Assembly: GCA_963766075.1 (NCBI GenBank)
Contig: CAVYAN010000038.1
Coordinates: 1-55,077 of the forward strand
Source of the DNA: an uncultured cyanobacterium
GTDB lineage: Bacteria > Cyanobacteriota > Cyanobacteriia > Leptolyngbyales > Leptolyngbyaceae
Direction of reading: 5' to 3'
Length of the DNA: 55,077 nt
Positions 36,229 through 55,005 of the stretch are shown here, in pieces. The notes below the pieces were generated by a model, which saw only the letters and a list, made by a program, of their open reading frames with translations, was not told where the DNA came from and did no database searches. Both the position numbers and the translations under genes were made by a program. Position 1 is the first letter of the stretch. Each line of letters begins with the position of its first letter.

Positions 36229-36775
36229 ATGTCTGACCAGAATTCTGAAGTGGTGTACCAGATTCGCCCCGACGACCTGATGACCGAGTTGGGTATTAAG
36301 AAAGATACGTATTACAACTATCTGAAATATTTGGGGCTGAAGGCAGAGAAGGATCACGACGGTAAAGCCTACCTGACAGATGAGCAGGCTAATGCGATGC
36401 GGGCGATGCGGCTACACGTAGAAACCACTGGAAAGATGGAAGGGTTTGTTAATAGTAATGGGGAGTTGGCGATTGCTAACGAGGCTAGTTTGGCCGATGC
36501 AGCGCTCAGGCCCTGAAGCGGATCCGAGCGACAACTGGTATGAGGAAGAACTGATCCGGGCGGCGGCTGAGCTGCGTGCCCAGCAGTTGGTGATGGAGCC
36601 GTTGGTGGTCCGAGAGTTGGCCAGCCGAATGAGCTATGACGATTTGCCGGAGGATGTGCGGGCAAAGGTGGATATGGTGCGAGAAAGCGCCTCCCCAAAG
36701 TTCCACCCCCAGGCGATCGCCGACAGCATCCTCGACCAGTGGCGCAATCGCAACCAGCAGCCCGCCACGGCCTAG
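36229..36775 (+). CDS. Hypothetical HTH-like protein (frameshift near 36505)
   Basis: LMTELGIKKDTYYNYLKYLG continues in another frame as LIRAAAEL...SPKFHPQAIADSIL. Confidence 0.55.
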
Positions 36776-36820: not shown

Positions 36821-37650
36821 GTGGCGGAAGCCTACGCTGTCCTCAAACAGGGGGACAGTGTGTTGGTGCTGGGAGAGGCGGGGTCTGGGATTGGTGAGAT
36901 CCCTCGGGCGATTTATGATCTCTGCGCTGGGGAGTTTGATGTGGCGATCGCCACCTATAAGGGCAGTGCCAAGCAGTTCTATCTGGAGATTGCCAAGGCG
37001 CTAGATACTCCCTATGAGCTGCCGGTGTATGACAAAGAGGGTGAACTGAAGGGCGCGAAGCCGATGACGGTGGACCAGTTGAAGGAGGAGATTCTGGACA
37101 ATGTGGGCGATCGCACATTGCTGATCCTTCCCGAAGCAAAGCGGCTCACCACAGCAGTCCGGTATTGGCTGGAGGATGTGCGGGCGGCGGGGGCAAAACT
37201 ATGTGCCTGTGCGCCTATTAACCCCATGCGGGATATTTTTCTAGAGATGATTGAGGTGGAGCTGACGTTGCCGGATGATGGGGTGATTCGGACGGCGATG
37301 GTGAATGAGGCGAAGGCCCTGGGCTATGAGTTGGGGCGATCGCAGTTGGCGGAGCTGCAACCGCTGGCGGGGCGGAATCCGATGTTGGCGCGGAAGGTGG
37401 TGCGGCGGGCAAAGTTGGGGCTGGCTCAAACCCCAGAACACACGCAGTATGTGGTGATGATGCCGGTGATTATTGCGATGTTGTTTGCGTTTGCGGTGGT
37501 GCGATTTGTGGGGATGGGCACCAATAACAAGACGCTGTATATCATTGGTGGGATTTGCATGATTGCGGCGATGGCGTTGAAGCAGTATAGCCCGATGGGC
37601 ATTCCAGAAAGGGGTATGTACGGGGGAGCCGGAAGCGGTTGGGGCAGTGA
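36821..37650 (+). CDS. P-loop ATPase with C-terminal TM helices; probable natural end YVRGSRKRLGQ* is out of frame after a short insert
   Basis: Degenerate Walker A VLVLGEAGSGIGE, AGRNPMLA, two TM segments; TGA at 37648-37650 in the shifted frame. Confidence 0.65.
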
Positions 37651-37658
37651 GGGTGCTG

Positions 37659-37958
37659 TTATTGCAGCCGCTGCTGCCATTTTTGGGGGGATTGGCGGCA
37701 GTCAAAGACGGCGTAGACGATGATTTCAGTGTCAGTGGCTTCGTAGATCACTGCATAGGGGAATCGCCGGATCACGGCTCGGCGATAGGTTTTGTAAATG
37801 ACTGGATAGGTTTTGGGATTGCGGACGAGGGCTTGGATGGAGGCATCCACAGCGGTGAGGAATTCCCGACCTAGCCCAATGCGTTTGCTTTCGTACCAAA
37901 AATAGCCGTTGTCTGAGTCGGCTTCCGCTTCGGGGGTGAAGGTGACGATCCTAGCCAT
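37659..37958 (-). CDS. ParE/RelE-family toxin (copy 1)
   Basis: WYESKRIGLGREFL...RRFPYAVIY...VYAVFDCRQSP. Confidence 0.88.
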   Translation of the reverse strand: MARIVTFTPEAEADSDNGYFWYESKRIGLGREFLTAVDASIQALVRNPKTYPVIYKTYRRAVIRRFPYAVIYEATDTEIIVYAVFDCRQSPQKWQQRLQ

Positions 37959-38166
37959 GACGCTCAATGATTCGGCGTTGTACGTCTTCCCAGGAGCGAC
38001 CGGAGCCGGGGTTGGCTTCATAGGCGGCTTTGCGGCGATCTAGTTCGGTCTTTTGCGCGTCGGTGAGAGGGATGTCGTTGGCATCGAGGCTGTCCCAGAG
38101 ATCTTGCACTAGTAGCAGGCGTTCGGAGGGGCTGAGGTTGAGCAGGGCGGCGTGTTCTGTGTTCAT
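37951..38166 (-). CDS. Addiction-module antitoxin, TIGR02574-like (copy 1)
   Basis: LSPSERLLLVQDLWDSL...ELDRR...SWEDV. Confidence 0.88.
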   Translation of the reverse strand: MNTEHAALLNLSPSERLLLVQDLWDSLDANDIPLTDAQKTELDRRKAAYEANPGSGRSWEDVQRRIIERHG

Positions 38167-38315
38167 GGCAGGGGCGGTGAGGTTCTTTCTTTATACCGTG
38201 ATTTCTTGAACGCTGGATCGCGTGGGTGGAGTGGCGATGATTGCGGCGATGATGTTGAAGCAGTATAGCCCGGTGGGCATTCCAGAAAGGGGCAGTAGCA
38301 AAGAGCGATCTCGCT

Positions 38316-38924
38316 TCAGTTTCTAATGCTCAGGTTTAAGTGGAGCCACCGCCCGGTAATGGCTCCGGTGATGCTGGACATGATGACGGTGATGAGGACC
38401 ATGAGCTGGTTTTCACCCAGCTTGCCTGAGATGCTGGTATCGAGGAATAAAGGGGTGGTGATGCTGCCTCCCAGGAACCAACTGATGGTGTTAACGAGGA
38501 GCCAACCGTTGGGTCTAGTGACTTGCCCTTGGAGAAGGAGCCACTGGAGCAGCCCAAAGCTAGCGCCTGCAACGATGATGGCAATGGCATAGCTGATGGG
38601 TCCGGGCATGGGAATGCCGGGAGAAGCCCAGCCGGTAATGCCGATGCTTAAAGCCATGCACGCTACGAGGCTGCCCATGCCAATGCCAAAGGCCAACAGT
38701 AGCCCGAGGGCGGTTGCCGCAATCCACCACAGGGAGTTTTCAATGTGTTTTCTCAGGACGAACCACTGAGCGGTGCCCCCTAAGATGCCGCAGCCGAGTA
38801 ACCCGAGGCTTTTGATCTCGGCTGCACCGGCTATGACAGCGGCGATCGCCATGCCGCCGGAGAAGCCCAGAATTGTTGCCAAGCACCACCGGATCCAGAA
38901 TTTCGGGACGATTGACGTTGACAT
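38316..38924 (-). CDS. Multi-pass membrane protein
   Basis: Repeated G..QW.vLR...WW units and about six TM segments. Confidence 0.7.
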   Translation of the reverse strand: MSTSIVPKFWIRWCLATILGFSGGMAIAAVIAGAAEIKSLGLLGCGILGGTAQWFVLRKHIENSLWWIAATALGLLLAFGIGMGSLVACMALSIGITGWASPGIPMPGPISYAIAIIVAGASFGLLQWLLLQGQVTRPNGWLLVNTISWFLGGSITTPLFLDTSISGKLGENQLMVLITVIMSSITGAITGRWLHLNLSIRN

Positions 38925-39121
38925 GGAACATCCATCCTCAAGCTGTGCGTTGCTTTCATCGTAGTTCCAAGATCGGAGGTTGAAGAGGGATGTGTGGGAT
39001 GGCGGCGCTGGGGCTAAAGCGGTATCGCCTGGTGGGCATTCCAGGAAGGGGCAGTGAGGGCGTTGTAGAATGGCAGGCAAAGCGGTCGAATTCCTCTGTC
39101 TAATGCGTTGGTCGGAAGCCT

Positions 39122-39526
39122 ATGTCTGAAGCTATTACCCTGCAATTACCCGATCGCCTGTATCAGCGATTGGTGAATACGGCCCAAGCGACGCAGCGTT
39201 CGTTGGAGGCGGTGATTGTGCGGGCTTTGGAGGTGGGTGCGCCGCCGGACTGGGATGATATTCCCGAAGAGTTTCAGGCGGATGTGGCGGCGTTGGATCG
39301 GTTGGACGATGGGGCGCTGTGGCAGATGGTCCGAGGTCGCAAAACTGCTGAGGAGATGACGGACTACGATACGCTGTTGGAGCGCCATCAAGCGGGTCTG
39401 TTAACCCCGGCGGAACGGTTGGAGTTGACGCGGCTGCGGCGGGATTGCGATCGCCTGATGTTGTGTAAGGCCCAAGCTGCGGTGATTCTGCGCTGGCGTG
39501 GCTCTCAGTTATTGAAAATGTCCTGA
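39122..39526 (+). CDS. Antitoxin-like hypothetical protein (orphan)
   Basis: ITLQLPDRLYQRL...LDDGALW...MLCKAQAAVILRWRG. Confidence 0.65.
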   Translation: MSEAITLQLPDRLYQRLVNTAQATQRSLEAVIVRALEVGAPPDWDDIPEEFQADVAALDRLDDGALWQMVRGRKTAEEMTDYDTLLERHQAGLLTPAERLELTRLRRDCDRLMLCKAQAAVILRWRGSQLLKMS

Positions 39527-39924
39527 AACGTTGTGGCAGTAACAATCGGAACTGGAAAATCATCCACCAACACCAACAAATCCTGATCGCCCGTAACCAA
39601 GTACGCGGCCTGTCCCGCGATCGCTAGCCACAAAAAGGGAACGTCCTTGAGATCGCGACAATCCGGCACCGGTGGCGGTGGTGCGGGAATCTCGACGCGC
39701 TCACAAAACGGTAAATAGTCATTCAGTAAAGCAGTTTGCTCCACCGGCGTAAGCTGAAATTTTGGATAATTCAACACACGCCGAATTTCGGCTGCGGTGG
39801 ATTCTGAAACGAGGGGGATAATGTCGCCCTGTCGCCAAGCGGCCCGCAACCAAGCCAATCGCCCTTTGCCAAACACGAGTGCTGACAGCACTGTATTTGT
39901 GTCAAATACAACCCGCGTTGCCAT
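39505..39924 (-). CDS. PIN-domain toxin (TIGR00305-like)
   Basis: RVVFDTNTVLSAL, CRDLKD, YLVTGDQDLL. Confidence 0.88.
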   Translation of the reverse strand: MATRVVFDTNTVLSALVFGKGRLAWLRAAWRQGDIIPLVSESTAAEIRRVLNYPKFQLTPVEQTALLNDYLPFCERVEIPAPPPPVPDCRDLKDVPFLWLAIAGQAAYLVTGDQDLLVLVDDFPVPIVTATTFQDIFNN

Positions 39925-39927
39925 CCC

Positions 39928-40134
39928 TTAAGCCTCTTGCCGGGCCCAGGTGACCGCATCTTGAATATCCGACTCGGCGATCGGCAACGCGGCTAACTTC
40001 TCGCGCACCAAATCGGCGGTGATTGCGCTATCCTCTTGCTGCCAAAGGGCTAAGACGGTCTCGGGTACATCCACGGTAATGGAAGCTTCATCTTGCTCAA
40101 TCAGATACTGCTTTGGGATTTTAATGACTGGCAT
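39928..40134 (-). CDS. Putative antitoxin of the PIN toxin
   Basis: Directly upstream of the PIN gene; VREKLAAL..AESDIQDAVTWAR. Confidence 0.6.
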   Translation of the reverse strand: MPVIKIPKQYLIEQDEASITVDVPETVLALWQQEDSAITADLVREKLAALPIAESDIQDAVTWARQEA

Positions 40135-40165
40135 TGGGATTACCTGTTCCTTTACCGGCTATACC

Positions 40166-40354
40166 CTATGGTACGGCAAAGATGAAGTGCGGTGGATGGG
40201 TAGAGACGTTGCCTAGGGTTGGGTATGGCGGTGCTGGTGATTCGGTGAGGAGGATGATCACGCGGACGCGGCTGGGTTGGGTGACTGGGAGGGGGAGATC
40301 GAGGGAGAGTTGGCCTTGGGCGTTGATGGCACCGGTGGCTTCGATGGCTTGCAT
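40166..40354 (-). CDS. Small TA-associated hypothetical protein (probably truncated)
   Basis: MQAIEATGAINAQGQLSLDLPL...RVRVIILL. Confidence 0.5.
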   Translation of the reverse strand: MQAIEATGAINAQGQLSLDLPLPVTQPSRVRVIILLTESPAPPYPTLGNVSTHPPHFIFAVP

Positions 40355-40840
40355 GGGGGTGAAGGTAAGGGGTGTTGCTGAGATTCTAGTAGGGGGGATG
40401 GTGGTGCGGTTTGTGGGGATGGGGACGAATAACAAGATGCTGTATATCATTGGCGGGATTTGTATGATTGCGGCGATGACGCTGAAGCAGTGTAGCCCGA
40501 TGGGCATCCAAGAAAGGGGTATGTCAGGGGAAGTCGGAAGCGGTTGGGGCAGTAGTTCGGGGCACGGAGCGGTGAGAATGTTTTAGACAGAAAAGTCCGC
40601 TCTGTGCCCGTGCAAAGGTTGCCCGGTGGTACACGGGGCTTTCTGAGAGGTCATGCCATGAGGTGGGTGAAACGGCGATCTCCCCAGGATGACCCCAAAC
40701 CACTACTCGGCCCGCAGCAACTGCACCCGCGAGCCACGACTGGCATACCCTAGCCTCACCTCATCTCCCGGCACCGTGACCGGCACCGAAACCGCAAACC
40801 GACTAGGACCGTTATCCCTGGCCCGCACCACCACTGAGTA

Positions 40841-40983
40841 GCCCACCCCCTGCCCCTGGGCCTCGCTATCCTCGGCTCCCAACTCCCCGACATCGACACC
40901 AGCACCAGCCTGATCGGCCAAATCTGCTTCCCCATTTCCCACTGGATCGAAGACCACTATCCTCACCGCACCCTCACCCATTC
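40841..40983 (+). pseudogene. Internal fragment of the metal-dependent hydrolase found intact at 53979
   Basis: Near-identical to 54039-54180 ([19 protein letters not shown]...HRTLTH). Confidence 0.85.
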
Positions 40984-41078
40984 TTTGTTAGCGACGGCAG
41001 CGATCGCGTAAGCATTGCCGGACGCAGTAGGATGGAAACAGACTTAGAAATCTTACCGATAACAAGGTGTGGCCACTC

Positions 41079-41315
41079 ATGCTCCCTGTGAATGAAGCCC
41101 AATCCCAGTTGCCCGATTTGATTGATGCCGTTAGCCAATCCCATCAACCGATTGTGATCACCGGCCAACATCACAATGCCGTTTTACTTTCAGAATCGGA
41201 TTGGATTGCAGTCCAGGAAACGCTCTACCTCCTCTCGGTGCCAGGAATGCGAGAGTCCATTCGGGAAGGATTAGCCACTCCCATTGAGGCGTGCGATCGG
41301 GAGTTGCAGTGGTGA
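41079..41315 (+). CDS. yefM: Phd/YefM antitoxin
   Basis: EAQSQLPDLID...NAVLLSESDW..ETLYLLSVPGMRESI. Confidence 0.88.
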   Translation: MLPVNEAQSQLPDLIDAVSQSHQPIVITGQHHNAVLLSESDWIAVQETLYLLSVPGMRESIREGLATPIEACDRELQW

Positions 41316-41575
41316 GTTGGCAGATTGTCTATACCAAGCAAGCTCAGAAGGATGCGAAAAAGCTGGCTTCTAGCAACCTGCGTGACAAGGCACAAGCATT
41401 GCTAGCCATTCTGCAAGTTGACCCATTTCAGAATCCACCGCCCTTTGAGAAGCTCGTGGCTGATCTGGCAGGTGCCTATTCGCGGCGGATTAACATCCAG
41501 CATCGTCTGGTCTATGAGGTGATTGAGTCCGAGAAAACAGTGAAGGTTCTCCGGATGTGGACTCACTACGAGTAA
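41312..41575 (+). CDS. yoeB: Txe/YoeB toxin
   Basis: PPFEKLVADLAGAYSRRINIQHRLVY...MWTHYE. Confidence 0.9.
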   Translation: MSWQIVYTKQAQKDAKKLASSNLRDKAQALLAILQVDPFQNPPPFEKLVADLAGAYSRRINIQHRLVYEVIESEKTVKVLRMWTHYE

Positions 41576-42054
41576 TCGGGCGGCGGGGGCGAAGCTGTGT
41601 GCTTGTGCGCCTGTTAACCCCATGCGGGAATCTTTCTAGAGATGATTGAGGTGGAGCTGACGTTGCCGGATGATGGGGTGATTCGGACGGCGATGGTGAA
41701 TGAGGCGAAGGCGATTGGGTATGAGTTGGGGCGATCTGAGCTGGCGGAGCTGCAAACGCTGGCGGGGCGGAATCCGATGTTGGCGCGGAAGGTGGTGCGG
41801 CGGGCGAAGTTGGGGTCTGGCTCAAACCCCAGAACATACGCAGTATGTGGTGATGATGCCGGTGATTATTGCGATGTTGTTTGCGTTTGCGGTGGTGCGG
41901 TTTGTGGGGATGGGGACGAATAATAAGACGCTGTATATCATTGGCGGGATTTGTATGATTGCGGCGATGGCGCTGAAGCAGTATAGCCCGATGGGCATTC
42001 CAGAAAGGGCTATGTGCGGGGGAGTCGGAAGCGATTGGGGCAGTGAGGGCGCTG

Positions 42055-42354
42055 TTATTGCAGCCGCTGCTGCCATTTTTGGGGGGATTGGCGGCAGTCA
42101 AAGACGGCGTAGACGATGATTTCAGTGTCAGTGGCTTCGTAGATTACCGCATAGGGGAATCGCCGGATCACGGCTCGGCGATAGGTTTTGTAAATAACTT
42201 GATAGGTTTCGGGATTGCGGACGAGGGCTTGGATGGACGCATCGACAGCGGTGAGGAATTCCCGACCTAGCCCAATGCGTTTGCTTTCGTACCAAAAATA
42301 GCCGTTGTCTGAGTCGGCTTCCGCTTCGGGGGTGAAGGTGACGATCCTAGCCAT
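42055..42354 (-). CDS. ParE/RelE-family toxin (copy 2)
   Basis: Near-identical to 37659-37958. Confidence 0.88.
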   Translation of the reverse strand: MARIVTFTPEAEADSDNGYFWYESKRIGLGREFLTAVDASIQALVRNPETYQVIYKTYRRAVIRRFPYAVIYEATDTEIIVYAVFDCRQSPQKWQQRLQ

Positions 42355-42562
42355 GACGCTCAATGATTCGGCGTTGTACGTCTTCCCAGGAGCGACCGGA
42401 GCCGGGGTTGGCTTCATAGGCGGCTTTGCGGCGATCTAGTTCGGTCTTTTGCGCGTCGGTGAGAGGGATGTCGTTGGCATCGAGGCTGTCCCAGAGATCT
42501 TGCACTAGCAGCAGGCGTTCGGAGGGGCTGAGGTTGAGCAGGGCGGCGTGTTCTGTGTTCAT
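42347..42562 (-). CDS. Addiction-module antitoxin (copy 2)
   Basis: Same protein sequence as 37951-38166. Confidence 0.88.
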   Translation of the reverse strand: MNTEHAALLNLSPSERLLLVQDLWDSLDANDIPLTDAQKTELDRRKAAYEANPGSGRSWEDVQRRIIERHG

Positions 42563-42841
42563 GGCAGGGGCGGTGAGGGTTCTTTCTTTATACCGTGATT
42601 TCTCGAACGCTGGATCGCGTGGGTGGAGTGGCGATGATTGCGGCGATGGCGTTGAAGCAGTATAGCCCGGTGGGCATTCCAGAAAGGGGCAGTAGTCCGG
42701 GGCACGGAGTGCCTGAAGATCTTTTAGAGAGAAGGTGCTCTGTGCCCGTGGAAAGGTTGCCCGGTGGTACACGGGGCTGTCTGAGAGGTCATGCCATAGC
42801 GTGGGTGAAACGGCGATCGCTACGCGACGACCGCCAAACCA

Positions 42842-43144
42842 CTACTCAGCCCGCAGCAACTGCACCCGCGAGCCACGACTGGCATACCCTAGCCTCACCG
42901 CACCCCCCGGCACCCTGACCGGCACCGAAACCGCAAACCGACTAGGGCCGTTATCCCGCGCCCGCACCACCACTGAGTAGCCCACCACGGCTGACCACCG
43001 CACGGCAAACTCCCGTGGCAACGAGGCAAACCAGACCTCAGCCACGAAGCCGGTAAATGACCTGTCCAACTCCCGCCAGAAACAATCCACTGCCGCGAAC
43101 TCCACCGCGAGGCCCTCAACAAACAAATAATCGACTGCTAACAT
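42842..43144 (-). CDS. Plasmid-type hypothetical protein; its 3' part is also copied at ~40700-40847
   Basis: RSFTGFVAEVWF...GYSVVVR...FAVSVPV; the duplicate keeps the same frame. Confidence 0.45.
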   Translation of the reverse strand: MLAVDYLFVEGLAVEFAAVDCFWRELDRSFTGFVAEVWFASLPREFAVRWSAVVGYSVVVRARDNGPSRFAVSVPVRVPGGAVRLGYASRGSRVQLLRAE

Positions 43145-43630
43145 GCCATTCCTCCGAAACTAAAAAACCGAAAGCATGGCATCGATCTAGCGGAGGGGGG
43201 CAAGGGCGGAGCAAAGCGGAGTGCATTTTACCCTTGCGGCCTGTAGCTATGATAAATGCCGCTGAAGGTTCCCCCAGAGGGGGTTAGGGGGGTAACGGGG
43301 TTTGGGGGTATCCCCCAAGTTAGAGGTTTGGAAACCGCCGTAGGCGACCTTGGGGCTGGGGCAAGTTCACTCATTCACGCTGTTTTGTGGTCCTTTCTAC
43401 GGTCTGTGGGGATGAGAATGGCCAGCGGTGACGGTGCGATCGCGGATTTTGACGCCATCACCACGGGAACAGCGATCGCGTTGAAGCCTGGAAGACGTGG
43501 CAATTGAGGGGCGCATGGTTTCGCTGGTGTGAGATTTTGTCGGGAATGGTAAGGAATATACTTGGACTCTTCTCATTTTGGGAAAGCCGATGTTATCTTG
43601 AATCTGACGCATGAACTTCATGAAAGGAAA

Positions 43631-43807
43631 ATGCCGAGGAAAGTCTCGACTGAGCCGATTAAACGCCTGACTGTGGAGCTACCGGAGAGTGAATATAATC
43701 TCTTGGAAGCTTACTGTTTGGCGCGGCAGGAAAGTAAGCGGCAGGTGATCCGGGCGTTGATTCAGCGATTAGAGCAACAAGCGAGGGGCGGAAAGGAAGA
43801 TGGATAA
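43631..43807 (+). CDS. CopG/RHH regulator at the head of the conflict operon
   Basis: IKRLTVELPESEYNLLEAYC...SKRQVIRALI; stop overlaps the next gene. Confidence 0.7.
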   Translation: MPRKVSTEPIKRLTVELPESEYNLLEAYCLARQESKRQVIRALIQRLEQQARGGKEDG

Positions 43808-44140
43808 GGAAATTGCGCAGTTTTCACTGGCAGATGGGACGACTTTTCCTCGTTGAAGTGGAGGAACCCGATAGCCCTGCGGTGGAGCGGGTGGCAACCA
43901 AGACTGGCCAGATGGTAATTGAAGACGAAGCAAACTTTTGAAGAGGCTATCGAGGCCATTAAGCCTGTGGCGGCTACGCTGGTGACGCGATTGCGGCAGG
44001 GGATGACGACTCCAGCAGATGAGGTGGAAGTAAAGTTTGGACTGAAGCTGAACAGTGAGATGGGAGCGATTTTTGCCTCTGTGGGGGGTGAGGTGAATTT
44101 TGAGGTGACGCTGAAGTGGAAGGAAGAAAAGGCGACTTGA
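43800..44140 (+). CDS. Trypsin-co-occurring (Trypco1 / CU044_2847-like) protein, frameshifted
   Basis: MDKEIAQFSLADGTT..VEVEE...FEEAIEAIKPVA...DEVEVKFGLKL..EMGAIFAS...NFEVTLKW. Confidence 0.8.
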
Positions 44141-44144
44141 ATCC

Positions 44145-45030
44145 ATGGTGAACACAAATTATCGGCAGGCGTTTAAGTCCGCGATCGCCCGGATCTATCA
44201 CGCCAATGGGGCGATCGTCGGCGCGGGTTTCTTAGTGGCAGAAGGACACCTGCTGACCTGTGCGCATGTGGTGACGGCAGCACTGGGTATTGATCTGACT
44301 ACGGCCGAGGCTCCGGAAACGCTGCTAGAGGTGGATTTTCCGTTGATTGCGCCGGGGCAAAAGGTGTGGGCGCGGGTGAATTTCTGGAGATCGGTGCAGA
44401 GCGAGGGAGGAATAGCTCTGGCCGATGGGGAAGATATTGCTGGGTTGCGATTGGAGAGGGCAGCGCCCCAGGGCTGTAAAGCGGTGCGGCTGGTAATGGC
44501 GGATGAGCTGTGGTCCCATGGGTTCCAGATTTTTGGATTTCCGAATAAGCGAGATGAGGGGATTTGGGCTGCGGAGGATTCGCGATCGTCTGGCCAATGG
44601 CTGGGTGCAGATTGAGGATATTAAGGCGCAGGGACAGGCGGTGCAGCCGGGGTTTAGCGGGGCACCGATTTGGGATGAGGTGTTGCAAGGAGTGGTAGGG
44701 ATGGCCGTAGCGGCGGATAAGAAGCGGGAGGAGACGAAAACCGCGTTTATGATTCCTTCAACAATTCTCGGTCAAGCCTGGAAAGAATTAGCTCTTGTGA
44801 TTTCAGCTCCGCCGGTAGCCTCTACATGAGTTCGGTTCAGCAAGTCAGGCTAAAGGTTGCTCAAGCCCGGGTGAATGCTTTAGGGGAAGATTTTGAGGCG
44901 GGGCATAATCAATTGAACTTCACCCAGGATGAAGTCGAGCGGGGCCGGTTGACGCGCCGGATTACATCATTGGATCAGGAGCTTGAGAATGGCAGACGAT
45001 CTAGATGCATTGCAAGCATAGCGTGAGTAA
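44145..45030 (+). CDS. Trypsin-like serine peptidase with a C-terminal coiled-coil (effector-associated-domain-like) region; frameshifted
   Basis: Catalytic triad motifs LLTCAHVV, EDIAGL and GFSGAPIWD. Confidence 0.85.
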
Positions 45031-45054
45031 ACAGAAGCTAGGGATTGATTGAGA

Positions 45055-46059
45055 TGGTAGTGTCAAGAACCTGGGAACCTAAAAGCGGTTGTGGTATTGA
45101 TAAGCGGATAGCACGGTTATCCGGAAGACTACGTGCTGACAAATGATGGATTGATCGGACCAATGAGTCGAAGTTGAGCGTGAACGTTTGAGCGCGAGGG
45201 CTGACATCAATCGATAACAGAGATGAAAAAGGCAGAGAGATAGTTAGCACAGCTTAGTCAAGCCTAAGGGTGATTACAGGCACTCTTGGAATCATTGGGA
45301 AGATAACATTCACCACATTGATTTTGATGGGGCGAAGAAAATTACTGATACTCTGCTCAAAAAGCATGAAAAACGAGAAGGAGCGCACACTCTTTTTTCT
45401 GCACAACAGTCAAAAGATGGGCGGGAAATGGTTCCTCCGTGGTGTAAAGTCACAGCTTCAGAATTTGCCTTTATCGGAATGGGCTGAACCCTTTGAGTGT
45501 CGGCTTGACTCCCCTCCTGGAGGCGATCCGAAGTTTTCTTAAGTAAGTTATCGGTAAGATTTAATCCTAAAGATGAATATAAAACTAAACAGGAGCGGAT
45601 CGATCAAAGTCGTTGATAAAATCTACGAGGCATTAGAGCGTCGCCATGTCTTTTTGATAGCAATAACTCTTGAACAAGTTAGACCTCAAGATCAGTTTCT
45701 AGACTGGTTTGTTAATCAGTTTTGGCGGGTGATTTTGAACAAACTATCTGAAATTAAGCAAGAACGTCCATTAATCCGAATTATTGGTGTGATTTCTGTC
45801 GAAGCTAAGGTTGCGAAGCCGCAAATTCCGAGGCATCTTTGCTGTTCAGTAAAGCAGTTTGATCCAGAAAAAATGGTTGAGTTACCGCTTAAGACCTGGA
45901 ATACAGAACAAATTTGTACATGGCTGGAGGCCTATTCCACGCTAGATCCGTGGAGAAATTCCAGAACATGCTGAAAATATCTACACTGTTGCAGACAATG
46001 GAATTCCCTTCCTTGTTTATGACAAACTAATGACCAAAATCACGATGGAAGCTAGTTAA
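45055..46059 (+). CDS. Inactive STAND (iSTAND)-type protein with a probable N-terminal coiled-coil; many indels
   Basis: HIDF, LFFLHNSQKMGGKWFL, FLDWFVNQFW, VELPLKTWNTEQICTWL; located directly before MoxR. Confidence 0.65.
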
Positions 46060-46082
46060 AGCCCCCAGGGAGTCTGTACCGA

Positions 46083-47022
46083 ATGAATGCTGCTAAACGA
46101 TATACCTTTCAGGGCGACTCTAGCCTGCGCCCCAGACCGGCTGTCACCCGGACTCGCCCCAAGCGGCGGAACCCTACCTGGCGGATGCCGACCTCATTGA
46201 AGCGGTGAACCTAGCGATTTATCTGCGCCGACCGTTGCTGCTGGAAGGGGAAGCGGGCTGTGGGAAAACGCGACTGGCTTCGGCGGTGGCCTATGAGTTG
46301 GGATTGCCGTTATACCGTTGGAATATTCGCTCTACGAGTAAGGCGCAGGATGGGCAGTATGCCTATGATGCGATTCTACGGTTGCACGATGTGCAGGCTC
46401 AGAAGGTTGATGCCAAGCTGAAACGCGATCCCAGCGACCCGAAGGCGTATCGACAATGGGGGGCGATTGGCAAAGCGTTTCAAGTCACTGATCGCCCCGC
46501 TGTCGTGTTGATCGACGAGATTGACAAAGCTGATTTGGATTTTCCCAATGATTTACTGACGGTGCTCGATCAGCCCTGGGAATTTACAATTACGGAAACG
46601 GGGGAGCGGATTGCCGCCACGCCGGGAAATGAACCCATCGTCATCGTCACTAGCAACAAGGAAAAGGGGAATCTGCCCGCACCCTTTCTGCGGCGCTGTG
46701 TCTATCACTACGTTAAGTTCCCTGAGGATGCAGGACGACTGCGAGAGATTGTGGACCAGCACTATCGCGATCGCGAAGCCAAACAGACTCCCAAAGCCCC
46801 CCTCATCGAGGCTGCTGCTGAGCAATTTCTCAAGGTGCGACAAGCGGGTGGATTGTTTAAGTCCCCTGGAACCAGTGAGTTTTTGGATTGGGTGGAAGCA
46901 TTGCAGAATTTTGCACCGAAACCCTATGGGGCCAGTAAATTGAAGCAAGCCGATCAAACGCTACCCTATCGGGACTTGCTGTTTAATTCCGAGCTGATTG
47001 GCAAAAGTATGCGGCATCATGA
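46083..47022 (+). CDS. MoxR-family AAA+ ATPase (indels near both ends)
   Basis: RPLLLEGEAGCGKT, VLIDEIDKADLDFPNDLL, TSNKEKGNLPAPFLRRC. Confidence 0.92.
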
Positions 47023-48103
47023 GTGAGTTTTTGCCAGAACCAATCATTCTGCGATTGTTCCAGCGCCTGCGGCAGGCGGATTTTAGTTTGGGTATGAATG
47101 AGTACCTGGCGGCCTTGGATGCGATCGCCGGTGGATTTGGGGCCAACAGCTTGGAGGCGCTGAAGCAAATGTTGCGGATGCTGTCAGTGCCATTCGCTGG
47201 CAGAGCAGAGCCAGTTTGAATTGATCTGGCCGGAGATGCTCCAAGTACCCAAGACCCTTTGAACAGTCGGAGACCCGCGCTGAGTCGCTCTCCCCAAAAC
47301 CGCAGGGGCCGTCAGCCTTACCCTCTAAGGAGAAGCCTACCCCCGTAGCCACGCCCCAGCCTGTCGAACGGCCAGATACAGAGTTTTCCACCTTGCCGGT
47401 GGATCTCCCTTCATCCCGGCTGAGGTAGACGATTTACCCGAACTGCATACCTATCACCCACTGTCGCGGCAATCGATGTCCTATGGCTGGCGCTATCTGC
47501 GACGCTTGGCGGCAACCGGGATTGCGGATGTGTTGGATATGGAGGCCACGGTAGAACAAGCGGCACGGCAGGGCTTTTTTCTTGCTCCGGTGTATCGCCG
47601 CCCGAGCGGTAATCAAGCGCGATTGCTACTGTTGATCGATCGAGGTGGTTCCATCGATGCCGTTTCATCGGTTTACCCGTGATTTAGTAGAAACCGCCTT
47701 AGCGCCGGGGGTATTTCCTGAGGATCAGGTGCATGTGGGGTATTTCCATAACTTCCCCACGGAGTATGTGTATCGCGATGCCCACCTCACGTCACCCCGC
47801 CCGTTGGCCGATCTGCTGGCCGAGTGCGATCGCGAAACCAGTGTGTTGATTGTGAGTGATGCGGGCGCAGCACGGGGCTTTCGCCGGATAGAGCGGATTC
47901 GCAAAACCACCGAATTTTTGGTGAAGCTGAAGCAGTATTCTAGTTTAATCAGTTGGCTGAACCCGATGCCGCGCGATCGTTGGCTGGGGAGTTCGGCGGC
48001 GGTGATGGGTTACTTGGTGCCCATGGAACAGATGGATCCCAATAGTTTGGGCAATGCCATTGATGTGGTGCGGGGGCAATCGGTTGTCCTTGGGGAGCGG
48101 TAG
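47019..48103 (+). CDS. vWA-domain protein of a MoxR-vWA system (frameshifted)
   Basis: LLLLIDRGGS(M.PFH), YFHNFP, VLIVSDAGAARG, WLNPMPRDRW. Confidence 0.85.
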
Positions 48104-48111
48104 GGAGCAGC

Positions 48112-49885
48112 ATGAACCATGAACCGGCACGGCAACAGGTGAAACGATTTGTTCGGCGATTTGAGCCATCCTATCGCCGATTGGCTTACTATGCGGCGTT
48201 GCCGTTGGTGCTGACGCCAGAGCTGGTCCACTATTTGCGTAACCAGTTTTTGCTTAAGGATGCGGTGAGCCAGGACGGGGTGATCGAGAAAGGGGTGCCA
48301 TGGGTGGCTGAGGCCGACCTCCTGCTGTCGGATTTGTGTAGTCCGGTGGGCTATGAGCAATATGCAATTGACCCAGCGGTGCGGGCGTATTTGCTGTCGG
48401 AGATGGAGACGGTGATTGGGCGAGACCAGATGCAGGCCGTGGCGCGATTGTTGCTGAGCTATGTCCAGCAGTTGGCTCAGGCAAACCCAGAAATTTGGCA
48501 GCAGGAACTGAAGAATCAGCAGTGGGCCGCGATGGTCTATTTGGATGATCTCAACAGCCGCGAATCTGTCGTGGGGCAGCTCGCAGCGGAATATGAAAAG
48601 TGGGCGGCGGCGGGCAAAATCACGGCGATGGGAGCACAGGCGATCCAAGCCCAGTTAGATCAGTTGGTGCGTATACGCAGGAAATGGCACCGCAGGTGCG
48701 AGACTATCCGGAACTGGTGCGCTATGCGGATTTGCTGAAACGTTTGCTCTACGAACCGGAAGCCGTAAATCCAGCGGAGTTAGCGCAGCAGTTTGCCTTG
48801 GCTCCGGGGATAGAGGTGGCGGTGCCGTCTGTATTGGTGGGTGGACCTGCGATCTCTGCTGGGGATGTCCTGTGGGGCAGACCTTTGACTATGAGGTCAT
48901 GACAGTTGCTTTTGATGAGGATGGCGCAGGTGAAGAGGACTCAGAGGCCGAGGACTCAGACGCTGAGGACTTAGAGATTGAGTCCTTCGAGTTTGATAGT
49001 GCCACGGTGGTGGTGTCAGAGAAAGGCCGTGGTCGCAAGAAAGTGCCCGAATTGGCAATCGCACGACAACGAGGGCAAGCGTGGCAGTTTATTGAACGAT
49101 TACCCGAGTCAGTCGCTCTAAAGAAATGGTGGCAATTCCTGCTGGAGAGTTCCTCATGGGGTCGCCAGAGAATGAGCTCAGAGCGAATAGACTCTGAAGA
49201 CCCACAGCACCGCGTCACCGTGCCTGAATTTTATTTAGGCAAGTACCCAGTCACCCAGGCGCAATGGCGGGTTGTGGCTGGGTTTCCGGAGATTGAGCGA
49301 GAGCTTAATCCAGATCCGGCTAATTTCAAGGGGGATGAACGCCCAGTAGAGCAAGTTTCGTGGGAAGAGGCTGTAGAGTTTTGTGCGCGACTAAGCGAGT
49401 TCACCAGACGCGAGTATCGGTTGCCCAGCGAGGCGGAGTGGGAGTATGCCTGTCGCGCTGGGACAACTACACCGTTCCACTATGGGGAGACTATCATTAC
49501 GGACCTGGCTAATTACCGAGGTACGGATTTGAAGTATGAGGGAAAAACTTATCCAGGGTTTTACGGCGCTGGCCCACGGGGGGAGTATCGAGAGCAAACC
49601 ACAGCGGTGGGCAGCTTTCCTGCGAATGCGTTTGGTTTATACGACATGCACGGGAATGTGTGGGAATGGTGCTTGGACCATTGGCATGGAAATTATGAAG
49701 GCGCGCCGCCGGATGGGAGTGCGTGGTTAAGTGAAGAAAAAAGCTCAGAACGCCTGCTGCGCGGCGGTTCGTGGTGCAGCGTCCCGAGGAGCTGCCGATC
49801 TGCGGTTCGCAACGTCTTCGCGCCCGGTGACCGCCTCAACGGCAGCGGTTTTCGAGTTGTCTGTGTGGCTGCCAGGACTATGTAG
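48112..49885 (+). CDS. DGR target 1: conflict-system N-terminal domain plus FGE-sulfatase (CLec-fold) C-terminal domain with VR1; frameshifted
   Basis: ALPLVLTPEL...[53 protein letters not shown]...GFRVV. Confidence 0.88.
49751..49882 (+). repeat. DGR variable region VR1
   Basis: Colinear with TR 52724-52855: 20 mismatches at TR adenines and 4 at other bases over 43 codons (hand count). Confidence 0.95.
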
Positions 49886-49920
49886 CCCTCTGCTCTTTTG
49901 CCCTCTTGCCCTCTGCCCGT

Positions 49921-49935
49921 GCCGCCCTTGGCGGC
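49921..49935. promoter_or_regulatory. DGR target-recognition hairpin after VR1
   Basis: GCCGCC-CTT-GGCGGC; a counterpart follows VR2 but not TR. Confidence 0.7.
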
Positions 49936-50004
49936 TCAAAATTTTTTGTCCTTTTGGCAGTATGCTAAGGCGATGACAGAACTGCCGACATCCGACATCA
50001 GTCC

Positions 50005-50262
50005 CTAATTCAAAAGACGCTCATATTCATCATGATCGCCGATCCAAATCCAATAATAATCGTCGCCCTTTTTCAAGGCTAAGGCGCGATAGCCGCCACT
50101 CACTCGGGCAGACCAAAGATTCTTCCCAACTTTTTTGAAATGTAACGAGGGATGCAGAGCATTTTGCTGCCATAGTCGATATGCCTTCCGCGCCTGCACC
50201 TTCATCTCCGGCGATAATTGCGCATATCCTTGCCAAAAATCAGCCGTCGTCCAGGACTTCAT
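50005..50262 (-). CDS. RelE/ParE-like toxin
   Basis: FWQGYAQL...ARKAYRLW...HPSLHFKKV..WSARV...WIGDHDEYE. Confidence 0.85.
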   Translation of the reverse strand: MKSWTTADFWQGYAQLSPEMKVQARKAYRLWQQNALHPSLHFKKVGKNLWSARVSGGYRALALKKGDDYYWIWIGDHDEYERLLN

Positions 50263-50461
50263 CCAGATCCCTCACTGAGTTGGCAGCAATCTCTGCTTCG
50301 GCTTTGGCTATCAGGCGATCTAACTTGCCGGAGTCCAAATCGGTGACCAGTTGCTGATCCCATCGCTCATCGAGATAGGCTTGCAGCCACTTGGCCAGAT
50401 CGCGAACCTCACCCTCTGGTAATGCTTTGATTGCCGATTCCACCTCTAGTCGGGTCGTCAT
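50240..50461 (-). CDS. Cognate antitoxin
   Basis: VESAIKALP...WDQQLVTDLDSGKLD.LIAKA; overlaps the toxin start. Confidence 0.8.
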   Translation of the reverse strand: MTTRLEVESAIKALPEGEVRDLAKWLQAYLDERWDQQLVTDLDSGKLDRLIAKAEAEIAANSVRDLDEVLDDG

Positions 50462-50593
50462 AAGCCACTTCACAGCTCAACAACGTTTATATCGTAGCGC
50501 TAATCGTTCCAGGCGGATGCTAAGCGCTAGACTCAGGGTTCTCGGAGAACCCTGGGATCTGAAGTAGGCTCCTTTTGGCAGTATGCTAGGGCG

Positions 50594-50962
50594 ATGACAG
50601 AACTGCCAATTATCCAAAAAACCTACGATCTGATCAAATGGTATGTGCCAATCTTAAACAAGCTACCTCGCGATCATAAATTTGGGTTGGGTGACCGAAT
50701 GATCGCAGGTTTATACGATCTGCTCGAAGACTTACTCCGCGCTAGGTTTGCCAAGGAAAAGCGGGATTTGTTAAGCGACTTAAATACAAATCTGGATATT
50801 CTGCGTTACCAAACTCGGCTCCTGCACGATTTCAGACAAATCACAACTCAGCGCTACGAGTATGTCAGCCATCTCTTCAACCAAATTGGCATCGACTTGG
50901 GCGGTTGGATTAAACAGCAAAATCCAACAAAAAATTTAACAACAAGGGTAATCTCCCAGTGA
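50594..50962 (+). CDS. avd: DGR accessory variability determinant
   Basis: [33 protein letters not shown]...LRYQTRL...[10 protein letters not shown], directly before the RT. Confidence 0.93.
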
Positions 50963-52108
50963 AACGTTACGGCGACCTGTGGCCGCAAATCACGAGCTTT
51001 GAAAACTTGTTGCTCTCTGCCCGCAAAGCCCAGCGGGGCAAGCGCTTTCGGGATAACGTCCTGGCGTTTAACGATCGCTTGGAAACCAACCTGCTGGCCC
51101 TGCAAACTCAGCTCCAAACCCAGAGTTACCAACCCGGAGCCTACCGCACCTTCGAGATATTTGAACCCAAGCCGCGCATCATCTCTGCCGCGCCCTACCC
51201 CGATCGCGTGGTTCACCACGCCCTCTGCACCATTATTGCCCCGTTGTTCGAGCGCACCTTCATCCACGACTCCTACGCCAACCGCATGGGCTATGGCACC
51301 CACCGCGCCCTGCATCGCTTCACGCACTATTGCCGCTCCCGGCCCCTACATTCTGCAAGCCGACATCCGCAAATACTTCCCTAACATCGACCACGCCATC
51401 CTCAAAGCCCTAATCCGGCGCAAAATCAAGTGCCCCCAGACCCTCTGGCTGATTGATCAGATTATTGACAATAGTCATCACGTTTGCCCTCACCCTAGCC
51501 CTCTCCCCGAGGGAGAGGGAACAAGAGTTCTGGCTCCCTTCTCCCCAGGGAGAAGGGTTGGGGATGAGGGCAAGTTTCCTGGCGATGATTCACTCCCCTC
51601 ACTAGAGCGCCCGCGCGGCCTACCCATTGGCAACCTCACCAGTCAGTTTTTTGCCAACGTTTACCTCAACGGCTTCGATCACTTTGTCACCGAAACTCTG
51701 CGCGTCCCCTACCTGCGCTACGTCGATGACTTTGCCTTGTTTTCGAGAGATCGCGCCTTCCTTGCCGATGCCCGCTTGGCCATTGAAGCCTACCTGTCCA
51801 CCCTGCGCCTCCAACTCCACCCCGCCAAAACCCAGCTTTCCGAGACCCGCCATGGCGCTAGCTTTGTGGGATTCCGCGTTCTGCCCGACCGCATCCGCGT
51901 CCGCAGCGATAACCTGCGTCGTGCCCGTCTGCGGTTCCAACGCCTGCGCCGTGCCGAGGCCCAAGGCCATCGACTCGCGGCCCGCATTGACTCTTCCCGG
52001 CAAAGCTGGCTGGCCCACCTGAAACATGGCGATACCTGGCGATTACGGCAAAAAATCGAATCCAATCCCCTAATCATCGATCAGGCTGTGCCATGCGGGT
52101 TCGATTAA
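50959..52108 (+). CDS. DGR reverse transcriptase (frameshift near 51340)
   Basis: [54 protein letters not shown]. Confidence 0.95.
51484..51573. repeat. 90-bp palindromic repeat element inserted in frame within the RT
   Basis: TTGCCCTCACCCTAGCCCTCTCCC...GGGAGAAGGGTTGGGGATGAGGGCAA. Confidence 0.8.
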
Positions 52109-52137
52109 ACTAGAACAACTACACAGAGGAAAGGCTC

Positions 52138-52383
52138 ATGATGACTCGCCTAGACGTAGATAGCGAACTTCTACAGGCCGCGATCGCCCTTGACCCCGAA
52201 GCCACCCCAGGGCCAATCGTTGAAACGGCTCTGCGCGAATATATCCAACGCCGCCAGCAATTAAAACAGGCCGTCATGCTGGGCGCTGAGGCGGCGGATC
52301 GGGGTGAGTTAATCGATGGCGAAACTGCCATGAGCGCCCTCAAACAGAAATTAGAGGCTTGGCGAAACGAGGCATCAGCGTAA
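52138..52383 (+). CDS. Antitoxin (VapB-like N-terminus, ParD-like C-terminus)
   Basis: LDVDSELLQAA...VETALREYI...GAEAADRGELIDGE. Confidence 0.75.
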   Translation: MMTRLDVDSELLQAAIALDPEATPGPIVETALREYIQRRQQLKQAVMLGAEAADRGELIDGETAMSALKQKLEAWRNEASA

Positions 52384-52682
52384 TGCGCCGTTATGAGATT
52401 ACGACCCTTGCCAACCAAGATCTCGAGGCTATCCTACGACATATTGCTGACAACGTAGGATTTGATCAGGCTGATCGTTTTTTGAGCCGCTTCACCCAAA
52501 AATTGCGCCGCATTGCCGCCTTTCCTAACCTTGGCAAACCCCGTCGAGAATGGGGCGAAGACTACCGCAGCCTGACCCTAGATGATTACCTAATTGTTTA
52601 CCGCGTTACCAAGGAAATTGTCGAAATTCTCCGCGTTGTCAGTGGGTATCGCGACCTTGACACGCTTTTCAATGATTCATGA
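52383..52682 (+). CDS. ParE/RelE-family toxin
   Basis: ANQDLEAI..HIA...FPNLGKPR...YLIVYR...VEILRVVSGYRDL. Confidence 0.88.
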   Translation: MRRYEITTLANQDLEAILRHIADNVGFDQADRFLSRFTQKLRRIAAFPNLGKPRREWGEDYRSLTLDDYLIVYRVTKEIVEILRVVSGYRDLDTLFNDS

Positions 52683-52723
52683 TGCTAACCACATCGTAAG
52701 ATGAGGCCAGGGGTAGGCAGACC

Positions 52724-52855
52724 AACCTGCTGCGCGGCGGTTCTTGGAACAACAACCCGAGGAACTGCCGATCTGCGGTTCGCAACAACAATGCGCCCGA
52801 TAACCGCAACAACAACAACGGTTTTCGAGTGGTATGTGTGGCTGCCAGCACTCTT
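52724..52855 (+). ncRNA. DGR template repeat (TR)
   Basis: AAC-rich copy of both VRs (13 AAY codons in the target frame), with no start or upstream domain. Confidence 0.95.
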
Positions 52856-53025
52856 CCATAGTCAGAACTGGTTCATCCACGGATGGGCTGGGCGTACTCG
52901 AAGAGTCCAGACCTGCTCCCGTGCAGAGGACAACCGCTGCCGAAAATCAAACCGAGGGGGATAGCTTGGTAGCCCTGGCACAGCCGAGGCGAACAGTTGC
53001 CCCCCTCACCCCTATTTTCCCTGCC

Positions 53026-53833
53026 ATGGCCCTCATCTACAAACGTTTCACCCGTACTGCCCAGTTTTTCTCTCAGCAGTTGAGTCCTACTGTCGGCCTA
53101 GATATGGTGCTGATTCCGGGCGGTAGCTTTCAGATGGGGTCGCCAGAGGATGAACTAGATAGAGGAGAACAAGAAGGCCCCCAGCACCGCGTTACGGTGC
53201 CGTCGTTCTGTATGGGCAAGTACCCGATCACCCAAGCCCAATGGCGTGTTGTAGCAGAGCTACCCCCGGCAAATCAGGATCTGGATCCAGAGCCGTCCCG
53301 TTTTAAGGGGGATGAGCGCCCTGTGGAGCAAGTTTCGTGGGAAGAGGCTGTAGAGTTCTGTGCGCGACTGAGCCAGTTTACCGGGCGCGAGTATCGTTTG
53401 CCGAGTGAAGCAGAGTGGGAGTATGCCTGCCGGGCTGGGACGACGACACCGTTTCACTATGGCGAAACCATCACTCCGGATATAGCCAACTACGATGGCA
53501 ACTCTACCTATGGTCGGTGGACCCAAAGGTGATTTACCGTGAGGAAACTACGCCAGTGGGCAGCTTTCCTGCGAATGCGTTTGGTTTGTACGACATGCAC
53601 GGAAATGTGTGGGAATGGTGCTTGGATCATTGGCATGGAAATTATGAAGGCGCACCAGTGGATGGGAGTGCGTGGTTAAGTGAAGAAAAAAGCTCAAGAC
53701 GCCTGCTGCGCGGCGGTTCTTGGTACAACATCCCGAGGGACTGCCGATCTGCGTTTCGCATCAACATGCGCCCGATTACCGCAACAACAGCTTCGGTTTT
53801 CGAGTGGTATGTGTGGCTGCCAGGACTCTTTAG
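53026..53833 (+). CDS. DGR target 2: stand-alone FGE-sulfatase (CLec-fold) protein with VR2; indels near 53520 and 53766
   Basis: [50 protein letters not shown]. Confidence 0.88.
53700..53830 (+). repeat. DGR variable region VR2
   Basis: Versus TR: 10 substitutions at adenines, a 1-nt deletion in AAT, and 2 non-A differences (hand count). Confidence 0.95.
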
Positions 53834-53873
53834 CTCTTTGCCCTCTTGCTCTTTTGCCCTCTTTCTATGCCTG

Positions 53874-53888
53874 TCCGCCCTAGGCGGA
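53874..53888. promoter_or_regulatory. DGR target-recognition hairpin after VR2
   Basis: TCCGCC-CTA-GGCGGA. Confidence 0.7.
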
Positions 53889-53978
53889 TCAAATTTTTTT
53901 AGCTTTCCTCTCCCCCACGGGTTAGATCGCCCCGTCAATCGGGCATGCTTGCGCCAAGACATTTGCAGCTTTCTCCCC

Positions 53979-55005
53979 ATGATGGCCATCACCCACGCCT
54001 GCATCGCCCTGGCCGGCACCACCCTCCTGCTCAACACCGCCCACCCCCTGCCCCTGGGCCTCGCCATCCTCGGCTCCCAACTCCCCGACATCGACACCAG
54101 CACCAGCCTGATCGGTCAAATCTGCTTCCCCATCAGCCACTGGATCGAAGACCGCTATCCCCACCGCACCCTCACCCACTGCCTGATCGTCACCGCCGTC
54201 TTGGTGGCCCTCACCCTACCCTTCGGCCTGTTCTGGGGGCTATGGCACCCCCTCGCCCTACCCCTCGGCCACCTGCTCTCCACCTTCGCCGACACCTTCA
54301 CCCGCCAGGGCGTTCAGCTCTTTTACCCCTACCCCGCCTGGTGCATCTCCGTCGCCAATCCCAAACGCCGCCTAGTCACGGGTGGACCCGGTGAGTACTG
54401 GGTTTTAGCCGGAGCGATCGCCGCCTTCCTCCTGGGCCTCTCCCTCACCCTGGGCGGTGGCCTCACCCAGCAAGTGGGTCAAACCCTCGGCATCCGTCAG
54501 GGAGCCATTGCGGTCTACAACAAACACGCCAGCCGCTACCAGGTCTATGCCAAGGTGGAAGGCTACTGGAGCAGCGATCGCACCCGTGCCGATGGCACGT
54601 TACTTCATCGTGGCCAATGATGGCGATGAGTTCATCCTGAGCAACGGCACTGGCCTCTACAAAACCGGACAGCAAATCATCCCCGAACGCCTCACCGCTG
54701 AAGTGGGCAATCCTGGGACGATGCAGCTCCAAACCCTGAGCTTTAGCGATGAGGAAGTGGGGGAGAAGCTGACGGCAGCGGCGGCGCAGTTTCCGGGGGC
54801 GTTGGTGTTGCTGAGTGGGCAGATGGCGATTGATCTGCCGGAATCGGTGCGGTTGCCCTTGGTGCCCAACCAACTCCAGACCGCGCAGCTCTCTGGCAAT
54901 ACGGTAACGCTCACCCATCACCCCATAGAGAAAGCGATCGCAGAGCTAAGGGACCAGTATGGATCGGGCAACCTAACGGTGCAGGTCATTACACCCAAGC
55001 CATGA
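53979..55005 (+). CDS. Membrane-bound metal-dependent hydrolase (YdjM-like); frameshift near 54600
   Basis: [34 protein letters not shown]. Confidence 0.85.

Follow-up and report, generated by a model that had tools for sequence, protein, structure and literature searches.

Here we present a computational analysis of a 55,077-nucleotide stretch of DNA (contig C38, referred to as the window) from an uncultured cyanobacterium of the Leptolyngbyaceae, in which toxin-antitoxin (TA) and membrane genes are arrayed behind an ATPase-like gene and are separated by six copies of a 35-bp motif. An earlier note, made from the sequence alone, had taken this motif for an attachment (att) site, one belonging to an integron-like system with no prior description. 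From the evidence at hand, we conclude that the array is not a new integron-like or site-specific cassette system. Instead, it probably reflects two ordinary processes superimposed on one another: the accretion of cargo by recombination at a hotspot between the ATPase-like gene and the downstream gene ydjM, and the homing of a 24-nt mini-element. The 35-bp motif was found to be the conserved 3′ tail of the ATPase-like gene with this mini-element in place of a single T.

The repeat copies and their 24-nt insert

All six copies lie where the earlier note had placed them (starting at 37580, 38258, 39017, 40485, 41976, and 42655), and all six are direct repeats. With up to 6 mismatches to the 35-mer allowed, they were the sole matches in the whole 5.05-Mb genome; at 7 mismatches, a seventh match appeared on contig C61, where a variant of the 24-nt element (C61:115576), the sole other copy in the genome, lies within a different palindromic repeat. 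The copies do sit, as had been proposed, in ATPase C-terminal copies of variable length, the ATPase-like homology 5′ of the motif running from ca. 37 to 406 nt. The hairpin that had been ascribed to every copy, on the other hand, fails in copy 3, whose GCCC/GGGC stem is broken. Copies 1, 4, and 5 contain 30 nt that are absent from copies 2, 3, and 6 (the long and short forms, respectively). Copies 5 and 6 are a duplicate of copies 1 and 2; block 41577-42695 is 96% identical to 37181-38298, and the ca. 4% difference includes indels. At copies 2 and 3, contigs of two independent runs reach across the junction and its insert, both of which are therefore real: a contig of run X1 covers copy 2 with its insert (37843-38516; 23 mismatched letters and 1 gap; ca. 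97% identity), and one of run X13 covers copy 3 with its insert (38498-39083; 18 mismatched letters and 0 gaps; ca. 97% identity).

Homologs of the ATPase-like protein end in ...ALKQLG.V.G.RKRLGQ*, and the 96%-identical homolog P0001 ends in ALKQLGYVRGSRKRLGQ. Copies 1, 4, and 5 encode this P0001-type end across the 24-nt block that replaces one T; in the gene itself, the original stop codon (37648-37650) is now frameshifted by the insert. The C-terminus is conserved to the stop codon, with the canonical end, in 124 of the 131 retrieved proteins, and read-through occurs in the window's own protein only. Two close relatives (P0125 and P0127) have unrelated sequence after NNKTL, which represents another joint within the tail. 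The idea that the insert is conserved as coding sequence was rejected, as the read-through differs non-synonymously between copies, and a −1 frameshift that restores the ATPase frame seems unlikely, given that there is no good slippery site.

Had a single insertion been inherited by all copies, the frameshifted codons behind it would be expected to drift. Unexpectedly, the stretch behind the insert shows 7 changes among copies 1, 4, and 5, and 7/7 are synonymous in the preinsertion frame (p ~1e-4 to 3e-4). Since every change is synonymous in the old frame, this comparison shows the insert to have been acquired separately by alleles that had already diverged, apparently by homing between matching sites. 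Between copies 1 and 5, there are 18 synonymous and 4 non-synonymous codon differences in the left arm; the two inserts are identical, but they are flanked by allele-specific single nucleotide polymorphisms (SNPs) at distances of 10 nt (left) and 4 nt (right). A left arm of the P0003 allele type is found in copies 2 and 6, copies 2, 3, and 6 have a GGT loop and the short form in common, and copy 6 resembles copy 2 on its left and copy 4 on its right. To the right of the insert, the sequence diverges between copies within 4 to 10 nt; the six sites, lying in alleles marked by synonymous SNPs, limit the copied tract to a few bases past the element. None of 56 other G/C-T-T-R-G sites in 36821-43300 carries the element, and these include a near-identical site 30 nt downstream. 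A TTCC variant is present in five of the six copies and is absent from 58 dispersed contexts (57 with TTCA and 1 with TTTA), and the donor was therefore presumably local. The copies thus compared point to copying that would be precise, homology guided, and between matching sites. We infer a homing mechanism and an enzyme that serves it; the four Y1-type genes in the genome, which lie on contigs other than C38, are a lead only as regards that enzyme.

The mini-element (consensus ATAGCCC-NNN-GGGCATTCAAGAAA; target usually G-T^T-R-G) also occurs in unrelated contexts, as at 2 metagenome loci. It was found in 12 of 89 genomes of the family (two of them marginal looking) and, with up to 31 copies, in 14 of 200 genomes of the class, which represent 8 families; the reversed-pattern control gave 0. 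A T precedes the element in 36/36 members of a first set of contexts and in 56/58 of a second, and a G stands at position +2 in 36/36 and 54/58, respectively. At empty paralogous sites, a single T stands where the element would be (8/8), and P0001 represents the empty ATPase allele. In one genome (G077), heptamer arrays host the element in all 30 contexts among the matches listed; in another (G511), one palindromic repeat does so in all contexts among the matches listed, and a third (G617) has a few host repeats. Such one-host-per-genome occupancy points to homology-guided homing, and the sites would allow a direct donor/recipient assay, although the one- or few-host pattern in other genomes could also come from host repeats spreading with the element inside. 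No insert-bearing site was seen in 83 ATPase loci of relatives, a plasmid BLAST of a 34-mer returned 2 matches at chance level only, and the 24-nt sequence string was not found in the literature searched. The refuting condition named in the earlier note, a motif that is just a dispersed repeat with no link to cargo boundaries, is half borne out: the 24-nt core is dispersed in other genomes, whereas here it is confined to cargo boundaries.

A cargo hotspot in a family of cyanobacterial plasmids and integrated elements: the ATPase-ydjM junction

The array lies within a backbone module made up of a helix-turn-helix (HTH) gene, the ATPase-like gene, the ydjM hydrolase gene, and further conserved genes, which we found in 43 plasmid records as well as in genome contigs. 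Every named host group among the 43 plasmid records is cyanobacterial, and 40 of them are typed as non-mobilizable; no transfer genes were found among the clusters scanned in related loci. There were no ATPase relatives among 598 viral candidates, and the motif pattern also gave 0 matches in viral contigs. Eighty genome loci were retrieved, and 6 were dropped before counting for want of a usable C-terminus, leaving 74. ydjM lies downstream in 64 of these (the other 10 have no ydjM in the DNA fetched); the ATPase stop codon overlaps the ydjM start (ATGA) in 8 of the 64, and the gap between the two genes exceeds 500 bp in 47. In these related loci, cargo starts directly 3′ of the ATPase stop codon. 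A Pfam family could be assigned to 61 of 122 open reading frames (ORFs) in the intervals, the families including BrnT/BrnA, ParE/ParD, TumE, Gp49/HTH, NACHT, Mrr, TIR, Abi_alpha, HNH, and small enzymes. These loci show the ATPase-ydjM junction to be a family-wide cargo hotspot, of which we found no description in the literature searched. With its TA, NACHT, Mrr, TIR, and Abi genes, and with half of its ORFs lacking a Pfam family, the hotspot is a source of defense-gene candidates.

Both flanking genes leave stubs in the intervals. Ten loci contain a total of 13 stubs of the ydjM head, all in the 87 kb of interval sequence, whereas 406 kb upstream, 303 kb beyond, and 916 kb of reverse strand contain none. 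The starting point of these stubs is the ATG or close to it, and several stop on a HIP1 site or slightly beyond one. Insert-free ATPase tail stubs were found inside the interval in 2 of the 74 loci (L053 and L098), the order in L098 being cargo, head stub, tail stub, cargo. Another insert-free tail stub, outside this count, is seen in detail in L032, and a plasmid locus (L029) has a shorter and weaker one. Among relatives, stubs of ydjM are commoner than ATPase tail stubs. In the window, a ydjM fragment with microhomology on one side and a HIP1 site on the other is followed by YefM-YoeB and then by the 406-nt ATPase stub, these pieces being what is left of two tandem backbones. As a separate observation, the interval of L097 contains a ca. 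104-nt periodic repeat within a TPR gene.

Formation of the array and its relation to known systems

We propose that related elements would meet and that one allele would enter via homology in one flanking gene, with the second joint being illegitimate or microhomology guided (either through one-armed integration or through a cointegrate trimmed by deletions). Both cargoes would be kept, with a short flanking-gene stub between them, and addictive TA cargo would favor retention; repeated rounds could then give rise to an array from at least four ATPase alleles. Presumably, a long second arm would let one allele replace the other cleanly and long repeats would be lost again by recombination, such that only short stubs would last. 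The mini-element may have entered one tail and then been copied precisely into the matching position of other tails, and lastly of the gene itself, by homology-guided homing or short-tract conversion. We infer this recombination route, and the role of selection in it, in part because a homologous anchor in one gene combined with an illegitimate joint (or a trimmed cointegrate) predicts stubs of both flanks whose outer end is constant, at the coding boundary, and whose inner end varies. The earlier proposal of tandem accretion at a gene-terminal att site therefore survives in outline, in that tandem cargo does lie behind a gene end and each unit carries a truncated copy of that end; a dedicated att site is not supported. 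The motif is an ordinary gene tail plus a dispersed element, and tail duplication also occurs without the element.

Several observations weigh against this two-process account. With its five tail stubs, this locus far exceeds the frequency seen elsewhere (2/74), an excess that the account explains only as a founder effect. The 13 ydjM head stubs are not independent, some being shared by descent or by one strain (L052 and L090). Copies 2, 4, and 6 have one exchange point within the 10-nt GGGGCAGTAG at the stop codon, which is short for RecA. The analysis turned up no homing enzyme. Finally, 12 of the 74 relatives have a tyrosine-recombinase cluster downstream (median distance, 7.3 kb), and C38 ends before that position.

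One alternative is that the mini-element itself drives the array: it would repeatedly frameshift the working tail, selection would favor an incoming allele that rescues the gene, and the hit tail and its cargo would be pushed downstream, or else a nicked element would be the crossover site. In favor of this, all six tails carry the element and come from different once-functional alleles, tail stubs are far more numerous here than in insert-free loci, the gene tail in X1 is insert free while its stub 2 is insert bearing, and the sequence to the right of the insert changes so soon from copy to copy. However, stubs arise without the element in other genomes, copies 5 and 6 duplicate copies 1 and 2 rather than recording successive rescues, and the genomes searched yielded no other insert-bearing array. 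That a selfish 24-nt homing element drives integrase-free TA cassette accretion, by gene inactivation or as a crossover point, seems to us a doubtful reading; if true, the array would be the work of a parasite with no room for any coding sequence. We think it very unlikely that a single insertion in one tail gave rise to all six copies through simple duplication and normal crossing over, with no homing step. The TTCC variant would fit such a history, as would the GGT loop and short form of copies 2, 3, and 6, but a local donor accounts equally well for the former, and several crossovers would be needed within 3 to 9 nt of the right end of the insert, beyond which 7/7 changes are synonymous, and SNPs lie close by on both sides.

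A dedicated site-specific recombinase might also insert cargo circles into the stop region of the ATPase gene (core, GGGGCAGT) and release them from it; this is the model of the earlier note with its core moved to the stop codon. The single exchange within 10 nt or less at the stop, the cargo that starts right behind the stop codon in related loci, and the downstream tyrosine-recombinase cluster, which the contig would end too early to include, all speak for it. Nevertheless, when a linked recombinase was looked for, as the note had suggested, no match to PF00589, TIGR02249, PF00239, or PF01797 (tyrosine, serine, and Y1 families) was found on C38, which ends inside the element. Inverted arms around the copies (at best 7 to 8 of 11) are the same as in random windows, stub 5′ ends vary and both flanking genes leave stubs, so that there is no fixed crossover point and no single kind of fragment, as one site, or an integrase-driven island at a gene 3′ end, would require, and selection alone would put the boundary at the stop codon. 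We therefore regard such a recombinase as unlikely. An assembly chimera of strain variants, comprising the array or its second half, is extremely improbable: although the joint between yoeB and the ATPase stub (41576/41577) was not reproduced in X13 or X1 (one X13 record stops there) and none of the listed pieces covers the full stretch, independent runs reproduce the junctions at copies 2 and 3, the two versions of the duplicated block are ca. 4% different, with indels, and the left joint of that block has no repeat that could mislead an assembler.

Turning to known systems, integrons combine intI, attC sites, and mostly single-gene cassettes in one orientation. The array likewise consists of tandem small TA-rich units, but these are multigene, lie on both strands, and are without attC-like sites. 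As had been observed earlier, there is no integron integrase or attC site at the array: TIGR02249 scored above cut-off on contig C41 only, and a pattern search found 0 attC-like RYYYAAC...GTTRRRY pairs in 37600-43300 and no match on C38 to the attC-like end on C41. That contig (C41:95203-97211) carries a true integron integrase and a two-ORF cassette with an attC-like end, and the same 85 nt end contig C17; short intI C-terminal fragments occur on C31, C17, C65, and C8. Xer/pdif modules have a 28-bp site with two 11-bp inverted arms and alternate in orientation; here, in contrast, all the copies are direct, with arms no better than random.

By analogy, the mini-element appears to behave like the small dispersed repeats (SDR) of cyanobacteria, which reportedly measure 21 to 27 nt and have heptamer arrays and other repeats as hosts; we know of no account that settles how SDR-type mini-elements move. 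Like SDR, it is small (24 nt), has a hairpin, inserts precisely without target duplication, and is dispersed in unrelated contexts; it is likened to them by these features, not by the sequences of SDR1 to SDR8, and it sits in a protein-coding tail and the stubs of that tail. According to PMC5861425, no SDR was found outside the Nostocaceae (the SDR study of Elhai et al. 2008, Genome Res 18:1484, is also cited in PMC2884548 and PMC4390886), whereas the element occurs in 8 families.

The array shares with the displaced C-terminal arrays of rhs genes (Jackson et al. 2009, PMC2935791) variable-length fragments of a conserved part downstream of the gene, and its proposed formation works like that of the cdiA-CT/cdiI modules known as orphans (Poole et al. 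2011, PMC3150448). Unlike in the rhs and contact-dependent inhibition (CDI) systems, the array fragment reaches the stop codon, and no protein tip or in-frame C-terminal domain is exchanged; the cargo consists of free-standing TA and other genes, and there are stubs of the downstream gene as well. In the SXT/R391 family of integrative and conjugative elements, variable DNA that includes TA and defense genes lies between backbone genes, with its left boundary behind a stop codon (Wozniak et al. 2009, PMC2791158), and tandem related elements recombine to form hybrids (Garriss et al. 2009, PMC2786100). In the junction studied here, too, a single intergenic site flanked by conserved genes holds variable DNA; the junction differs in its unrelated cyanobacterial backbone and in the flanking-gene stubs left in the interval, and the likeness is one of hotspot layout, not of conjugation or Bet/Exo. 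Lastly, homology-facilitated illegitimate recombination, with its homologous anchor and illegitimate joint, would yield exactly such stubs; the process is known from other bacteria, in which it accompanies natural transformation, and not from this element (PMC6382021).

Features of the window

Features of the array and its flanks in the window
Feature	Coordinates	Strand	Remarks
HTH-like backbone gene, frameshift-split	36229..36775	+	two ORFs, one cluster present in 59/74 related loci
ATPase-like backbone gene	36821..37650	+	degenerate Walker A, C-terminal hydrophobic hairpin; 43 plasmid records match
Mini-element copy 1, inside the ATPase-like gene itself	37587..37610	+	24 nt
ParE toxin and addiction-module antitoxin	37659..38166	-	PF05016, PF09720
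Tail stub 2	38222..38298	+	VGGVAM allele type, short form; mini-element 38265-38288; X1 contig spans
Hydrophobic membrane-protein ORF	38316..39080	-	no Pfam family
Tail stub 3	38987..39057	+	most diverged, short form; mini-element 39024-39047; X13 contig spans
RHH-like ORF, candidate orphan antitoxin	39122..39526	+	PF22513 below cut-off
PIN_3 toxin and small upstream ORF	39505..40134	-	PF13470
Tail stub 4	40400..40555	+	long form; mini-element 40492-40515
3′ part of unnamed ORF and flank	40556..40847	-	89% like 42696-43000
Internal ydjM fragment	40844..41008	+	left joint in GCCCACC(CC) microhomology; right end at HIP1 site near 41000
YefM-YoeB pair	41067..41575	+	PF02604, PF06769
Tail stub 5	41577..42046	+	406 nt of ATPase, long form; mini-element 41983-42006
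Second ParE pair	42055..42562	-	interval 98% identical to first ParE interval
Tail stub 6	42607..42695	+	short form; mini-element 42662-42685
Rest of hotspot interval, last stub to ydjM	42696..53978		unnamed ORF, trypsin/STAND/MoxR-type/vWA/FGE-sulfatase cluster, DGR, further ParE-type toxin
ydjM-family metal-dependent hydrolase, right-hand backbone gene	53979..55005	+	homolog matches PF04307; cluster in 63/74 loci

The "ATPase" had no match in Pfam, NCBIfam, or PADLOC; it is placed among AAA_22-type clusters by ESM Atlas alone, and its Walker A motif is without the lysine. The HTH-like gene, split here, is a single 192-amino-acid ORF in L032. The ydjM frame is apparently broken near 54600, and the contig ends ca. 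1.1 kb into the gene. The element in the window looks decayed, with IS1 at a putative rep gene, an ISAzo13-type transposase, and several frameshifted genes. IS1 (32033-32800) abuts the 5′ end of the putative rep gene, and the ISAzo13-type element occupies 34967-36211, with its end recurring on contig C42. Perfect palindromes with 25-bp and 23-bp arms lie at 26746-26796 and 23621-23666, respectively, and an Rfam search matched only the tRNA.

The cargo list drawn up previously (two ParE pairs, a membrane protein, an orphan antitoxin with a PIN pair, and YefM-YoeB) agrees with Pfam, save that the membrane-protein ORF has no family and the antitoxin ORF is weakly ribbon-helix-helix (RHH) like; the fourth interval was found to contain fragments of ydjM (homology, 40844-40981) and of the unnamed ORF as well. 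The true start of the membrane-protein ORF is probably near 38925. The unnamed ORF (42842-43144) had no match in Pfam or Atlas, and after it lies a G/C-rich, hairpin-like non-coding stretch (43200-43400), which we take to resemble small-plasmid origin regions.

Further on, 43919-49885 encodes Trypco1, trypsin-like peptidase, EAD9, iSTAND, MoxR-type AAA, vWA, and FGE-sulfatase proteins, with several frames that look broken. A diversity-generating retroelement (DGR) lies in 48872-53830, with Avd at 50594-50962, a reverse transcriptase at ca. 50961-52108 (apparently frameshifted), an adenine-rich template near 52726-52852, and two FGE-sulfatase targets that end near 49879 and 53830. Several ATPase loci have ORFs that fall into the same clusters as homologs of its reverse transcriptase and Avd. 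A link to this nearby DGR was considered and rejected, there being no sequence support for it. In the stretches 38166-38220, 38925-38986, and 40357-40399, a −10-like hexamer of the minus-strand cargo genes lies, by eye, 12 to 25 nt from the next stub, a spacing that looks as if trimming had halted at the promoter.

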